A DNA stretch of 64,000 nt, from the NCBI GenBank assembly GCA_028289135.1, contig JAQGGW010000003.1, forward strand, positions 2,015-66,014. The letters run 5' to 3'. Made by a program: the position numbers and the translations under genes. Under the pieces are notes generated by a model. The model saw only the letters and a list, made by a program, of their open reading frames with translations, was not told the origin of the DNA and did not search any database. The DNA comes from Candidatus Saccharimonadota bacterium. GTDB lineage: Bacteria > Patescibacteriota > Saccharimonadia > Saccharimonadales > JACDBH01. Below are positions 6,642-46,160 of this stretch, piece by piece; position 1 is the stretch's first letter, and every line of letters begins with the position of its first letter.

Positions 6642-8165
6642 ATGAATACAACCAGCGAGAAAATTGGTCACTTAATTTACCAAGTACGGCAAGAAAAAGG
6701 CCTAACCCAGGCTGAATTTGCCAAACGGCTGAACACATCGCAGTCGGCAGTTAACCGTATTGAACACGGGCACCAAAACCTTAGCATGGATATGCTAGGC
6801 CGGATTAGCGATGTTTTAAACAAGCAGATTATTAGCCTAAACACCAACGCCGTTTCACTCCGGATTGAAGGCGGCCACAAACTAAGCGGTGAGATTTCGG
6901 TTAAAACCAGCAAGAACGCTGCCGTTGGCCTGATCTGCGCTTCGCTACTTAACAAAGGCACGACCAAACTTAAGTCCGTTGCCCGCATCGAAGAAGTTAA
7001 CCGCCTGGTTGAAGTGCTTGAAAGCATTGGCGTAAAAGTCCGTTGGCTGCCCGGAAACGACCTGGAGATCAAACCGCCCGCCAAACTTAATCTTGAAAAT
7101 ATCAACGGTATAGCCGCACGCAAAACCCGCAGCGTTATCATGTTTGTCGGCGCGCTAATGCACGATTATAAAGAATTTAAGATCCCCTATGCCGGCGGCT
7201 GTGAACTTGGCAAACGAACGGTTTTGCCGCACATTTACGCGCTTGAAGAATTTGGAACGAACATCATCGCCAAAACCGGGCATTACAACATTACGTCCAA
7301 GCTCAAACTCCCAAAGCGCGATGTGGTTTTGTACGAATCCGGCGATACAACTACCGAAAACGCCTTGATGGCCGCGGCTGGATTTGAAGGCGAAACGGTT
7401 ATTAAAATGGCAAGCGCTAACTATGCAATCCAGGACATGTGTTTCTTCTTGCAAAAGCTCGGCGTCAAAATTGACGGCATCGGCACGACAACTTTGCGCG
7501 TCCGCGGCCAAAAGCGCATGAAGAAAAACATTAGCTACGCTCCAAGCGAAGACCCGGTTGAGGCCATGACTTTTATTGCGGCCGCGATTGCGACCGACTC
7601 AACGATTACTATCAAGCGCGCGCCGATTGACTTCTTAGAACTTGAACTTTTAAAGCTAGAAAAAATGGGACTGCGCTATGACACAAGCGAAAAATACAAG
7701 GCTGAAAATAATAAAACCGACCTGGTTGACCTAACTATCCACGAACACAATGGCAAGCTGATTGCGCCGGAAGACAAGCTCTATGGCCGCCCTTTCCCTG
7801 GCCTAAACATCGACAACTTACCGTATTTTGTGCCGATTGTAGCTGTTGCCAAAGGCCGCAGCATGATCCACGACTGGGTTTACGAAGACCGCGCGCTGAT
7901 GTTTACCGAAATGAAAAAGATTGGCGTTGACCTGGAGCTAGCCGACCCGCACCGGGTGTTTATTAACGGCCCAACCCGCTGGCGCGCCGCCGATTTAGTT
8001 TGCCCAAGCGGCATCCGCCCGGCAGTTATTATTTTAATCGGCATGCTGGCCGCAACCGGCACCTCCATGCTTCGCAATGTCTACACAATCAACCGCGGTT
8101 ATGAAGACCTGGCCGAGCGTTTGAATTCCCTTGGTGCGCACATCGGCATCGTTCACGAAGTATAA
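6642..8165 (+). CDS. murA: UDP-N-acetylglucosamine 1-carboxyvinyltransferase with N-terminal XRE-type HTH domain
   Basis: Residues 1-65 form an HTH (LTQAEFAKRLNTSQSAVNRIEHG). The rest is MurA/EPSP-synthase fold (GGHKLSGEISVKTSKNAA) with an active-site loop AGGCELGKRTVLPH that retains the Cys. Confidence 0.85.
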   Translation: MNTTSEKIGHLIYQVRQEKGLTQAEFAKRLNTSQSAVNRIEHGHQNLSMDMLGRISDVLNKQIISLNTNAVSLRIEGGHKLSGEISVKTSKNAAVGLICASLLNKGTTKLKSVARIEEVNRLVEVLESIGVKVRWLPGNDLEIKPPAKLNLENINGIAARKTRSVIMFVGALMHDYKEFKIPYAGGCELGKRTVLPHIYALEEFGTNIIAKTGHYNITSKLKLPKRDVVLYESGDTTTENALMAAAGFEGETVIKMASANYAIQDMCFFLQKLGVKIDGIGTTTLRVRGQKRMKKNISYAPSEDPVEAMTFIAAAIATDSTITIKRAPIDFLELELLKLEKMGLRYDTSEKYKAENNKTDLVDLTIHEHNGKLIAPEDKLYGRPFPGLNIDNLPYFVPIVAVAKGRSMIHDWVYEDRALMFTEMKKIGVDLELADPHRVFINGPTRWRAADLVCPSGIRPAVIILIGMLAATGTSMLRNVYTINRGYEDLAERLNSLGAHIGIVHEV

Positions 8166-10413: not shown

Positions 10414-10488
10414 GCGGGATTCGTATAGCGGCTAATATATAAGTTTTCCAAACTTAGGAGGAGAGTTCGATTCTCTCATCCCGCACCA
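10414..10488 (+). tRNA. tRNA-Gly (anticodon TCC)
   Basis: Acceptor GCGGGAT/ATCCCGC, anticodon loop TTTCCAA, T-loop TTCGATT, encoded CCA. Confidence 0.9.
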
Positions 10489-10494
10489 AGTCAC

Positions 10495-10571
10495 GCACCC
10501 GTAGCTCAGCTGGATAGAGCAATGGGCTTCTATCCCACAGGTCGGGGGTTCGAATCCCTCCGGGTGTACCA
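10495..10571 (+). tRNA. tRNA-Arg (anticodon TCT)
   Basis: Acceptor GCACCCG/CGGGTGT (G1-U72), anticodon loop CTTCTAT, T-arm GGGGG-TTCGAAT-CCCTC, encoded CCA. Confidence 0.88.
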
Positions 10572-10578
10572 ATAAAAA

Positions 10579-10606
10579 AGTCTCACCGCTAGGTGGGGCT
10601 TTTTTA
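10579..10606 (+). terminator. rho-independent terminator after the tRNA pair
   Basis: AGTCTCACC-GCTA-GGTGGGGCT (9 bp including 2 G-U pairs) followed by TTTTTT. Confidence 0.7.
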
Positions 10607-10610
10607 TTGG

Positions 10611-10824
10611 CCGCGAGGGATTCAAACGCCTTGGCCAAAAAGGTCGGGGTGAAAAATGCCAGTGGCATTTTGCAAGGAAATCTTCACTTGGCAACTTGTT
10701 GCCAAAGCAGAAGTTTCGGGCTCGCCAAAGGCGAGTTGAATCCCTGATTGTTAACCTAAGAAGTTTATAAAAACGAAGTTTCTGGCCTGCTGAAAGCAGG
10801 TCGAATCCCTACAATATGTTCTAA
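10611..10824 (+). repeat. array of short hairpins with two tandem 65-nt-spaced units ending in tRNA T-arm-like GAATCCCT
   Basis: The units at 10710 and 10775 share GAAGTTTC[G/T]GG-hairpin-T[T/C]GAATCCCT. The hairpin stems differ but stay complementary (CTCGCC/GGCGAG versus CCTGC/GCAGG). A third, inverted GAATCCCT lies at 10617-10624. Confidence 0.55.
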
Positions 10825-11261
10825 AGACGGATGGCATCACTAGGAAAGCCTTTTTTCATGGCCTTAACAATTGCTTCTTGGAGCTGAGGAGTCCGGAAAG
10901 CGATTTTGGCAAAGGCTTTTTTGTCTATCCATTGGGGTTTATGGATATTCACAGTTAGTTTGTTAAGCTGTGCTTCTTCGGATGCATCATCGAGCGCAAC
11001 ATCGGCGTGCGGCGCGACTTCGCATAGGTATATATACTGCTCGTTGTACGGCGGCTGGTGGTATTCAACAAAAACTAGCTGCGCCGTAGTGATGCTAAGG
11101 CCTGTTTCTTCCATGATTTCGCGGACCAATGCGTCTTCGGGTGTTTCGCCTTCGGCCACACGGCCGCCGACCAATGTGTAGTATTGGCTGCCTTGTTTGT
11201 TACGGTACATAACTAAAACTTTGTCGTTTTCGATAATAATTGCGCGGCTTGCTTGTCCCAT
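10821..11261 (-). CDS. NUDIX hydrolase
   Basis: Nudix box GGRVAEGETPEDALVREIMEETGL. 146 aa. Confidence 0.85.
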   Translation of the reverse strand: MGQASRAIIIENDKVLVMYRNKQGSQYYTLVGGRVAEGETPEDALVREIMEETGLSITTAQLVFVEYHQPPYNEQYIYLCEVAPHADVALDDASEEAQLNKLTVNIHKPQWIDKKAFAKIAFRTPQLQEAIVKAMKKGFPSDAIRL

Positions 11262-13653: not shown

Positions 13654-13848
13654 CTCTTGTCCTTTTTACGGAGTATGCAGGCATTATTATAACCCATGTG
13701 TAAATAGTGCCCAGCATAATCTGCCTAAACTTAGGTTTATAACCATATTTTAGGCGTCGGTATACAGCCCGTTAGTTAGAGAGATGGTTTGTGTTATTTC
13801 ACAGACGCTCTCATTGACATATCCTGTCTATTTTTTAATACTAGACTC

Positions 13849-14343
13849 ATGCCAATAAACAGCTGCCAATTCTGTAAAGCAAACTTCTATGCAAAACCAA
13901 GTCATATAAAAAAGGGCTGGGGCAAATATTGCTCTAAATTGTGCCAGTCTTCGTCAAAAAAGACAGGAAATATGATAGACTGTTTTATTTGCAAAAAGCC
14001 GACATATAAAAATCTAAGAGATCAGCAAAGGTCAGTTAGCAGCAAATTTTTCTGTTCAAAATCTTGCCAAACCATTTGGAGAAACACTCAGTATTCTGGA
14101 GATAAACACAGTAACTGGACGGGAGGTAAGTCTTCGTATAGAGTTGCACTACTACGCAGCAGCTTAAAACAAGCTTGCGGCAAGTGCACGATTACTGACA
14201 AGCGCGTTCTCGCTGTTCATCATAAAGATAAAAATAGATGGAATAATGACCTTTCTAATCTGATGTGGTTATGTCATAATTGTCACTATCTTGTTCACCA
14301 CGATAAGAGAGAGGCTGAAGGCTTTTTGGTGCCTGTAGCTTAG
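13849..14343 (+). CDS. HNH endonuclease with duplicated CxxC zinc-ribbon modules
   Basis: Motifs HHKDKNRWNN...NLMWLCHNCHYLVHH (HNH) plus CQFC...CSKLC and CFIC...CSKSC. ATG chosen at 13849, whereas the track ORF starts at a GTG at 13789. Visibly AT-rich. Confidence 0.75.
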   Translation: MPINSCQFCKANFYAKPSHIKKGWGKYCSKLCQSSSKKTGNMIDCFICKKPTYKNLRDQQRSVSSKFFCSKSCQTIWRNTQYSGDKHSNWTGGKSSYRVALLRSSLKQACGKCTITDKRVLAVHHKDKNRWNNDLSNLMWLCHNCHYLVHHDKREAEGFLVPVA

Positions 14344-14405
14344 CGGTTTAAAGCGTCGGTTTGTGGTACCGAAGATCGAGGGTTCAAATCCCTTTAGGCA
14401 CCCCA
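14328..14405 (+). tRNA. tRNA-His (anticodon GTG) with encoded G-1
   Basis: An extra 5' G opposite discriminator C73, acceptor GTGCCTG/TAGGCAC, anticodon loop TTGTGGT, encoded CCA. The 5' end overlaps the last 16 nt of the HNH ORF. Confidence 0.88.
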
Positions 14406-45822: not shown

Positions 45823-45851
45823 TTGACTTTTTTATCAAAAAAACAGATAAT
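45823..45851 (+). promoter_or_regulatory. sigma70-type promoter upstream of the tRNA-Lys locus
   Basis: TTGACT (45823-45828)-N16/17-GATAAT/ATAATA. It lies about 35 nt upstream of the truncated tRNA copy. Confidence 0.5.
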
Positions 45852-45885: not shown

Positions 45886-46008
45886 CGGGCCCGTAGCTCA
45901 GCTGGTTAGAGTGAGAACTGCCAGCGGCAGTTCGGAAACGAATCTTCCGATGAAAACTTGTTTTCAATCGCGAAGTTCGGGGGTCGCGGAACGTGACCCT
46001 GCCTTTTA
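45886..46008 (+). pseudogene. 5' half of tRNA-Lys(TTT) interrupted by an 86-nt structured insertion
   Basis: 45886-45910 matches the first 25 nt of the intact tRNA-Lys, and 45997-46008 (CCTGCCTTTTAA) matches its anticodon stem 5' strand plus loop. Between them lie 4 hairpins. No 3' half follows. Confidence 0.7.
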
Positions 46009-46047
46009 ACGAAATACAATGTACTTTTCCATTAAATCCACTATATG

Positions 46048-46124
46048 TGGGCCCGTAGCTCAGCTGGTTAGAGCACCTGCCTTTTAAGCAGGGTGTCGTG
46101 AGTTCAAGTCTCACCGGGCCCTCC
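46048..46124 (+). tRNA. tRNA-Lys (anticodon TTT)
   Basis: Acceptor GGGCCCG/CGGGCCC, anticodon loop CTTTTAA, T-loop TTCAAGT, encoded CCA. Confidence 0.92.
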
Positions 46125-46160
46125 ACGAAAAAAGACTTATAGCAAGATAGGTCTTTTTTC
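46125..46160 (+). terminator. hairpin terminator after tRNA-Lys
   Basis: CGAAAAAAGAC-loop14-GTCTTTTTTCG, an 11-bp stem with a T-run inside its 3' arm. Confidence 0.6.

Follow-up and report, generated by a model that had tools for sequence, protein, structure and literature searches.

The DNA analyzed here (the window) is a 64,000-nt (64 kb) stretch of contig JAQGGW010000003.1 from a Candidatus Saccharimonadota bacterium, and our subject is a structured element, built of helices P1 to P4, that is found beside its tRNA genes. One copy lies downstream of tRNA-Arg(TCT), where the gene order is MFS transporter and MarR regulator (minus strand), tRNA-Gly(TCC), tRNA-Arg(TCT), a hairpin, a spacer, a NUDIX hydrolase gene and a histidine kinase. 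The spacer (10611-10820) extends to the stop codon of the convergent NUDIX gene. An original prediction, made from the letters alone, had described two tandem hairpin units in this spacer and read them either as stacked integration (att) scars or as a small family of tRNA-derived RNAs. We find that the spacer is a patchwork of tRNA-Arg fragments carrying one complete and one truncated copy of the element. The features of the locus are as follows.

10414..10488, plus strand: tRNA-Gly(TCC), intact (ARAGORN; Rfam tRNA, 58.1 bits).
10495..10571, plus strand: tRNA-Arg(TCT), intact, the origin of the tRNA fragments in the spacer (ARAGORN; Rfam tRNA, 65.3 bits).
10569..10610, no strand assigned: strong hairpin with an A run on its 5' side and a T run on its 3' side (bidirectional, terminator-like), the centre of a region in which the tRNA-Arg 3' end is duplicated in inverted orientation (inverted repeat I1, 19-nt arms, 89% complementary).
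10611..10630, minus strand: degenerate inverted copy of the tRNA-Arg T-arm, the outer arm of a palindrome, containing GAATCCCT in inverted form (inverted repeat I4).
10641..10649, plus strand: AGGTCGGGG, equal to the variable loop and T-stem 5' strand of tRNA-Arg(TCT) (10539-10547), with 10645-10649 forming the P1 5' strand of copy A (direct repeat D8).
10641..10752, plus strand: complete copy A of the element (covariance model R1, 119.4 bits, E 3e-31; single-copy folds; covariation).
10710..10745, plus strand: unit 1, made up of the P3 3' strand (GAAGTTTC), P4, the joiner and the P1 3' strand of copy A (direct repeat; covariance model).
10758..10810, plus strand: 5'-truncated second copy, which holds unit 2 (10775-10810) (direct repeat D1; weak model match).
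10821..11261, minus strand: NUDIX hydrolase gene, convergent, the right border of the spacer (Pfam PF00293; homologues).

The repeat units and the element that contains them

The two units, predicted to lie 65 nt apart, do form a direct repeat of 36 nt (D1; 10710-10745 and 10775-10810, 75% identical). As had been proposed, their stems differ in sequence yet remain complementary, giving perfect 6-bp hairpins, CTCGCC/GGCGAG and CCTGCT/AGCAGG. Composition-preserving shuffles of each unit's 15-mer, run as the chance check that the prediction called for, reached 6 bp in 4e-5 and 3e-4 of trials, and a perfect 6-bp hairpin occurs in just 4e-4 of all 15-mers of the window; thus, the unit hairpins exceed chance. 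The tails were likewise correctly identified as tRNA-derived, since they match the T-loop and T-stem 3' strand of tRNA-Arg(TCT), and their 5' counterpart, AGGTCGGGG, lies upstream at 10641-10649. Within the 64 kb, GAATCCCT occurs four times against ~1.3 expected by chance, and all four occurrences fall in 10552-10810 (the tRNA-Arg T-arm, both units and one inverted). This inverted GAATCCCT is the third copy that had been noted, although it lies at 10616-10623, one base from the predicted 10617-10624, and it is not a unit but the far arm of the inverted duplication of the tRNA-Arg 3' end (repeats I1 and I4).

While the units are a real repeat, their description was incomplete, as a larger conserved fold begins ~70 nt upstream of unit 1. 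We are highly confident that the units are parts of this larger element, which is ~110 nt long and consists of an 86-87-nt core of three hairpins (P2, P3 and P4) closed by helix P1 to give a four-way junction. P1 directly abuts P2, P3 is long and three-part with an invariant loop, AACUUGUU, and P4 is followed by a 4-nt joiner back to P1. In copy A these parts are P1 (10645-10649/10742-10746), P2 (10650-10674), P3 (10677-10717, with the invariant loop AACTTGTT at 10693-10700), P4 (10719-10737) and the joiner GAAT (10738-10741). The motif GAAGTTTC shared by the units is the P3 3' strand, and its partner, GAAAUCUUC, lies at 10677-10685. The shared tail, TYGAATCCCT, comprises the last bases of P4, the joiner and the P1 3' strand, and the covarying hairpin that had been noticed is P4. 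When folded singly, copy A of the window and two copies from other Saccharibacteria genomes (loci L010 and L017) form an identical four-way junction.

These homologous loci were collected as the surroundings of NUDIX homologues from genomes and metagenomes and compared by blastn. Similarity to the spacer was found in L004, L010 and L017, and it covers the region upstream of unit 1, not just the units. L010 and L017 each hold a complete copy, located after tRNA-Gly(CCC). We built covariance model R1 from three copies (window copy A, L010 and L017); it also matches a partial copy in L004 and a second complete copy in the window, copy B. Because copy B was excluded from the building of R1 and is matched all the same, it is an independent fourth member of the family. 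Isolated 3' domains were also sought with a regular expression and a hairpin scan, which returned the known copies only. Copy B lies beside tRNA-Lys(TTT), in the following arrangement.

45887..45911, plus strand: second copy of tRNA-Lys(TTT) nucleotides 1-25, which span the D-arm and the acceptor 5' strand, the left flank of copy B (25/25 identical to 46049-46073).
45903..46013, plus strand: complete copy B, core ~45912-45997 (R1, 75.6 bits, E 8e-19; R2, 108.8 bits).
46049..46125, plus strand: tRNA-Lys(TTT), intact, 39 nt downstream of the interrupted fragment (ARAGORN; Rfam, 72.4 bits).

Unit 2 gives a weak match to the model across 10758-10801 (model positions 35-96, 7.7 bits with filters off), and we therefore regard it as belonging to a 5'-truncated copy. 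The parts of this copy are GAAGTTTC, a hairpin P4' (10784-10802) and a T-loop/T-stem fragment of tRNA-Arg, TCGAATCCCT (10801-10810), which is found only in unit 2 and in tRNA-Arg itself. Additionally, the motif AGAAGTTT / GAAGTTT occurs three times within 10709-10782 (10709, 10759 and 10775), so that the stretch between the units contains one more short relic of the P3 3' strand.

Compensatory changes and the folded strand

Covariation was measured over four sequences aligned to the model. In this four-copy alignment 96.5% of cells form standard pairs, and both sides have changed in 14 of the 36 pairs, spread across all five helices. With partners slid by 1-3 columns as a control, there were 1-6 double-changed pairs and 32-51% were paired, and none of 500 shuffles attained the observed values. 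Compensatory changes of the kind that mark a structured RNA under selection are therefore present among the four copies, and the claim that the hairpin is under structural selection is borne out. The alignment contains seven G.U/U.G pairs and no A.C pairs, which indicates that the folded strand is the tRNA-sense strand. Every copy is co-oriented with its adjoining tRNA genes.

The strand is central to one alternative, namely that the hairpins are a minus-strand feature, 3' untranslated region (UTR) or terminator structures of the convergent NUDIX mRNA. The NUDIX transcript probably crosses the spacer to the bidirectional hairpin at 10569-10610, and the minus strand of the spacer does fold better than shuffles (z -4.6). 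However, the plus strand folds better still (-97.9 versus -81.1 kcal/mol), and the G.U pattern also favours it. In a terminator scan none of the spacer hairpins, those of the units included, had a T run after it on either strand, and so the unit hairpins are not intrinsic terminators. Moreover, the orientation of the element relative to NUDIX differs among loci: it is upstream and in the same direction in L010, divergent in L017, and copy B has no NUDIX neighbour at all. Thus, the element is not a NUDIX UTR feature, and we consider such an origin of the hairpins highly improbable. A conserved small open reading frame (ORF) was also rejected as an explanation, as the 46-codon frame over copy A is interrupted by a stop in L010.

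In the predicted fold of the spacer, the 10569-10610 hairpin is entirely paired, the unit 2 tail has a possible partner in the inverted fragment at 10616-10623, and 10627-10636 can pair with 10641-10650. The last of these pairings includes the P1 5' strand of copy A and competes with P1; L004 retains a pairing of this type with a mixture of compensatory and disruptive changes.

Signals that might produce a plus-strand transcript were found near copy B.

45823..45851, plus strand: promoter-like TTGACT-17-GATAAT, 36 nt upstream of the tRNA-Lys fragment of copy B (consensus match only).

A second promoter-like site, GTGACC-16-TACAAT (45993-46020, plus strand), stands just upstream of the intact tRNA-Lys. 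Its -35 box is the P4 3' strand of copy B, and the insertion may thus have supplied part of a promoter. Judged by eye, the L010 sequence from the tRNAs through the element to the NUDIX start is free of terminator-like hairpins.

tRNA fragments around the core

Copy A is framed as AGGTCGGGG / core / GAATCCCT, with both flanks matching tRNA-Arg(TCT). On the plus strand of the 64 kb, the 9-mer AGGTCGGGG occurs at just two sites, in this flank (10641-10649) and in the tRNA gene (10539-10547). Because the flanks are the 5' and 3' strands of the tRNA-Arg T-stem, P1 is equivalent to that T-stem. In copy A, L010 and L017, the core stands in place of the first three T-loop bases. The core of copy B sits instead between the D-arm and the anticodon stem of the duplicated tRNA-Lys 5' half, and is followed by CCTGCCTTTTAA (45998-46009), which is identical at 12/12 positions to the anticodon stem 5' strand and loop of tRNA-Lys. 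In L010 and L017 the element comes directly after tRNA-Thr(CGT) and tRNA-Gly(CCC) in the frame GAGGG / core / GACTCYCTCTACCCGCACCA, that is, a tRNA-Gly-like T-stem followed by an acceptor 3' strand and CCA. This frame is 17/20 identical to the 3' end of the window tRNA-Gly(TCC), and its acceptor strand, TACCCGC, differs from that of the adjoining tRNA-Gly(CCC). The hosts of all four full cores are tRNA fragments, never complete genes. A wobble U is common to the tRNA types concerned, namely Lys UUU, Arg UCU and a Gly type that is nearest to UCC; with three cases, this may be chance.

Neither the spacer nor the copy B region has the cloverleaf of a tRNA or a tRNA pseudogene, as ARAGORN reports no tRNA or transfer-messenger RNA (tmRNA) in 10572-10820 or 45887-46048 and Rfam gives no tRNA match there up to E 10. 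Of the two readings first offered, a small tRNA-derived RNA family comes nearer than att scars: a conserved RNA family does exist, its members lie also inside tRNA-Lys and tRNA-Gly-like fragments, and the unit is its 3' third only.

The other of these readings holds that the tails are att-type duplicates of the tRNA-Arg 3' end and that the hairpins are incidental. Like the attL/attR duplicates left by integrases, the fragments lie beside an intact gene of the neighbouring tRNA, the locus varies among relatives (the spacer is missing from L024), and the breakpoints of the tRNA pieces, in the T-loop and where the anticodon loop ends, are at what are reportedly classic crossover sites of integrases. 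Partial tRNA duplicates seem, in addition, to be common in these genomes (a tRNA-His fragment in L047 and a chimeric tRNA-Gly in L017). Against this, an att repeat should run to the tRNA 3' end, and in the window it does not: the tails are just 8-10 nt long, match as TCGAATCCCT / GAATCCCT only, end after the T-stem and diverge before the acceptor strand, and the units are separated by 29 nt. The L010 and L017 copies do continue to CCA. Nor is there a sign of an integrase or island. Pfam analysis of 20 ORFs within ~5 kb of both window copies identified ordinary cellular genes and no integrase, recombinase, transposase or reverse transcriptase, and scanning viral contigs for patterns of the conserved core motifs, like blastn searches of phage and plasmid collections, returned no similar sequence. 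Finally, the same covarying, RNA-like core of 86-87 nt, conserved with compensatory changes, lies between tRNA pieces at three tRNA types. The conserved core thus largely refutes scars as the full explanation, and we regard plain recombination or integration scars as very unlikely.

The position of the core within tRNA sequence raises a different possibility, an intron-like intervening sequence that is removed from tRNA precursors at the RNA level, with the present copies being decayed interrupted tRNA genes. The core is found in the T-loop, with the T-stem as its closing helix, and at the junction of D-arm and anticodon stem, both of which are known positions of non-canonical archaeal tRNA introns; as with those introns and with permuted or split tRNA genes, related inserts occupy different positions in different tRNAs. 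Also relevant is L017 (2228-2352, minus strand), where a full-length tRNA-Gly(CCC) carries a 51-nt T-loop insertion between positions 59 and 60 that is unrelated to the core. ARAGORN overlooks this gene in its present form but, after in silico excision of the 51 nt, reports tRNA-Gly(ccc). Unlike the archaeal introns, the core lies in a bacterial genome and in each case within a tRNA fragment, and uninterrupted tRNA-Arg(TCT) and tRNA-Lys(TTT) genes lie next door. Precise removal of the core would not restore a complete tRNA, as it leaves an incorrect T-loop with 1-3 bases missing. The consensus fold and the junctions show no obvious bulge-helix-bulge motif, although no formal search was made, and no bacterial splicing enzyme is known to act on such introns. 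An intron-like core is accordingly very improbable. The 51-nt insert of L017 begins with AATCCCCCGCC, which resembles the 3' terminus of a different tRNA and, in the predicted fold, can pair with the acceptor 5' strand; this tRNA-Gly(CCC) may therefore be an interrupted gene or a chimera that T-loop recombination produced.

Rearranged tRNA sequence is also seen on the other side of tRNA-Arg. Inverted repeat I4 pairs 10545-10560 with 10615-10630 (16 nt, 88% complementary), and 10545-10630 as a whole is an imperfect palindrome of ~40 nt per arm centred on the terminator-like hairpin. The left arm of this palindrome is the T-arm, acceptor strand and CCA of tRNA-Arg; thus, the terminator after tRNA-Arg seems to be a product of inverted duplication of the tRNA 3' end. 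The A and T runs of this hairpin were judged by eye together with repeat I1, and the terminator scan does not list it. A further partial tRNA is found in the closest relative, L047 (3890-3910), where a second tRNA-His 5' end, GCTGAGCTAAAGGCACC, lies beside tRNA-His(GTG), and partial tRNA duplicates next to tRNA genes seem to be common in these genomes.

Distribution, origin and significance

As the prediction had suggested, relatives were compared at the orthologous locus, and the spacer proved variable. In L024, whose NUDIX protein is 73% identical, the NUDIX stop, 8 nt, tRNA-Arg(TCT) and tRNA-Gly(TCC) follow one another in the window order without the 249-nt spacer. Occupied and empty sites are therefore both present among relatives, L024 being the empty one. 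In the closer relatives L047 (NUDIX 89%), L022, L023, L002/L003 and L063, the NUDIX gene is in another context and the element is absent; the NUDIX-anchored loci with the element are L004, L010 and L017 only. Another set of loci (~170 kb), collected around homologues of peptide deformylase and additional homologues of NUDIX, contained no more copies, and the ~357 kb of ~45 Saccharibacteria contigs held four full and two partial copies only. Core identity is 67-72% in all pairs, including copies A and B of one genome (66.7%), and the NUDIX genes beside three of the cores are 62-70% identical at the DNA level. At such divergence the copies are old, and their pairing has been kept, which argues for continued structural selection and not for recent transposition.

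Some of the occupied loci are also rearranged or decayed. Between the same two genes (encoding a membrane protein of 116/117 aa and NUDIX), the block of tRNA-Thr(CGT), tRNA-Gly(CCC) and element is inverted in L010 (2197-2480) relative to L017 (2094-2430). L004 (3342-3874) keeps only the first third of the element and lacks the tRNA genes; this interval also contains a pair of small ORFs, antitoxin/toxin-like by eye, after a perfect 20-bp hairpin.

Such a pattern could be that of a non-autonomous mobile DNA element, either resembling a miniature inverted-repeat transposable element (MITE) or palindromic and derived from IS200/IS605, that inserts in tRNA-like DNA. A transposase encoded at some other locus would recognise its hairpins in the form of single-stranded DNA, and only insertions in dispensable tRNA fragments would survive. 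Dispersed copies do break contiguous tRNA sequence without target duplication, as single-strand transposons do, their left flanks are alike (GGTCGGGG, GGTTAGAG and GATGAGGG), hinting at a target motif, and the strand-specific pairing, sporadic distribution, empty site, and truncated and decayed copies all agree with this idea. In the same way, Rickettsia palindromic elements, repetitive extragenic palindromes and bacterial interspersed mosaic elements (REP/BIME) and MITEs are short, hairpin-rich, multi-copy and patchy, and can sit in RNA-gene sequence. The copies here differ in being old, with 67-72% identity and compensatory changes, and the two full copies within the 64 kb, being just 66.7% identical, bear no trace of recent transposition. 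On inspection, the alignment of the four copies revealed no terminal inverted repeats or target-site duplication: the core begins TGARAA and ends in the P4 3' strand, its ends are not complementary, P2 and P4 are dissimilar, and the flanks continue the tRNA sequence without duplication, with 1-3 bases lost at the junctions. Furthermore, the fold is a four-way junction and not a simple palindrome, and all three hairpins covary, including the central P3, with conserved junction and P3 loop bases, which exceeds what end recognition needs. All copies lie in tRNA-derived sequence in the orientation of the tRNA. The absence of a transposase applies to the 5 kb around the window copies, the rest of the genome not having been searched. 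Taken together, these observations make a mobile DNA element unlikely.

Comparison with known RNA families did not place the element. At gathering score, Rfam 15 reports true tRNAs only, and with permissive filters the spacer, copy B and L010/L017 gave chance-level matches only (for example DUF3800-II, E 8.5, and skipping-rope, E 1.7). A literature search found nothing specific to such an element. The tRNA-like domain of tmRNA and the RNA YrlA resemble it in that a tRNA arm frames a foreign structured body, and the L010/L017 copies have a tRNA-like tail ending in CCCGCACCA. Unlike either, the element has no possible acceptor stem, no tag reading frame and no rsr neighbour, its window copies are without a CCA tail, and the Rfam tmRNA and YrlA models do not match it; the sole YrlA row (17.6 bits against a gathering score of 69) overlaps real tRNA genes. 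Since the element departs in a defining feature from each of four known kinds (att duplicates, palindromic elements of the Rickettsia/REP/BIME/MITE type, archaeal tRNA introns and tmRNA/YrlA), we file it as an uncatalogued structured RNA or repeat family nested in tRNA fragments. Several further candidates were considered and rejected. Hammerhead, twister-sister and hatchet ribozymes lack both their core motifs and an Rfam hit here, and a CRISPR RNA or omega-RNA scaffold with a tRNA-matching guide has no nuclease gene nearby. Apparent resemblances of GAAGUUUCGG to a tmRNA 3' end, which had no ARAGORN or Rfam support, and of GGGUGAAA to the RNase P specificity domain were likewise dropped.

Taken as a whole, our preferred reading is that of an uncatalogued structured RNA family, associated with tRNA loci, that relocates by recombination within tRNA sequence; we judge it evenly balanced between right and wrong. 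The element would act as an RNA on the tRNA-sense strand and would be made as part of tRNA-gene transcripts, as the promoter-like site at copy B and the lack of a terminator-like hairpin in L010 suggest. The family would persist as old copies maintained by selection, and would spread between tRNA loci via recombination in conserved tRNA sequence (T-loop and D-arm) with no dedicated integrase or transposase. Such recombination may leave behind the tRNA fragments, inverted duplications and truncated copies. We propose recombination within tRNA sequence because of the T-loop breakpoints, the palindromic TTCGAA core, the inverted duplication, the block inversion and the chimeric tRNA-Gly of L017. 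As for a role, our guess is that the element is a passenger RNA of tRNA operons that needs tRNA-like flanks for its folding or processing.

Several observations weigh against this reading. The element occurs sporadically, unit 2 is truncated and the L004 copy is decayed, all of which resembles a selfish element rather than a needed gene, and recombination in tRNA sequence is deduced from breakpoints only. The flanks of copy B match tRNA-Lys perfectly although its core is 33% diverged from copy A, which would need gene conversion or a recent event. The single-sequence fold of copy B is without the P1 and P2 of the model, and the tRNA D-arm fragment competes for pairing. With four full copies only, the covariation rests on few sequences. 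Lastly, no plus-strand promoter is predicted for copy A, which follows a strong terminator, and this copy may be transcribed mainly antisense, as NUDIX 3' UTR.

A more radical possibility, which we consider improbable, is a mobile RNA living in bacterial tRNA sequence, either as a T-loop intervening sequence removed from precursors or through template switching of a reverse transcriptase onto tRNAs. In Neurospora, the reverse transcriptase of mitochondrial retroplasmids switches templates onto tRNAs. Template switching of this type would explain the chimeric tRNA-element-tRNA junctions, and the L017 tRNA-Gly(CCC) insertion indicates that T-loop interruption of full-length tRNA genes does occur in this group.

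If true, either form of a mobile RNA would represent a type of tRNA-gene disruption for which Bacteria offer no described example, and processing of the element from tRNA precursors or its movement through tRNA sequence would extend the biology of disrupted tRNA genes from Archaea and eukaryotes to Bacteria. Known non-coding RNAs are few in Saccharibacteria and other bacteria of the candidate phyla radiation, whose genomes are tiny, and a conserved four-helix RNA that is always nested in tRNA-derived sequence, at several tRNA types and in the orientation of the tRNA, is a new family to catalogue. The element also provides a handle on the rearrangement of tRNA loci in these genomes (fragments, inverted duplications and block inversions). 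Even as a mere passenger repeat, it would explain spurious hairpin arrays beside tRNA genes and caution against calling them att sites.

Two other observations were made in the window. A 184-aa ORF (13789-14343, plus strand) with several CxxC pairs and a weak match to HNH endonucleases (PF13392, below cut-off) ends within the start of tRNA-His (14329-14405). Upstream of the tRNA-Arg locus, an ORF at 6642-8165 (plus strand) encodes a MurA-like enzyme (EPSP_synthase family) with a fused N-terminal helix-turn-helix domain, and this fusion is kept beside the serine hydroxymethyltransferase (SHMT) gene in other Saccharibacteria (L058 and L060).

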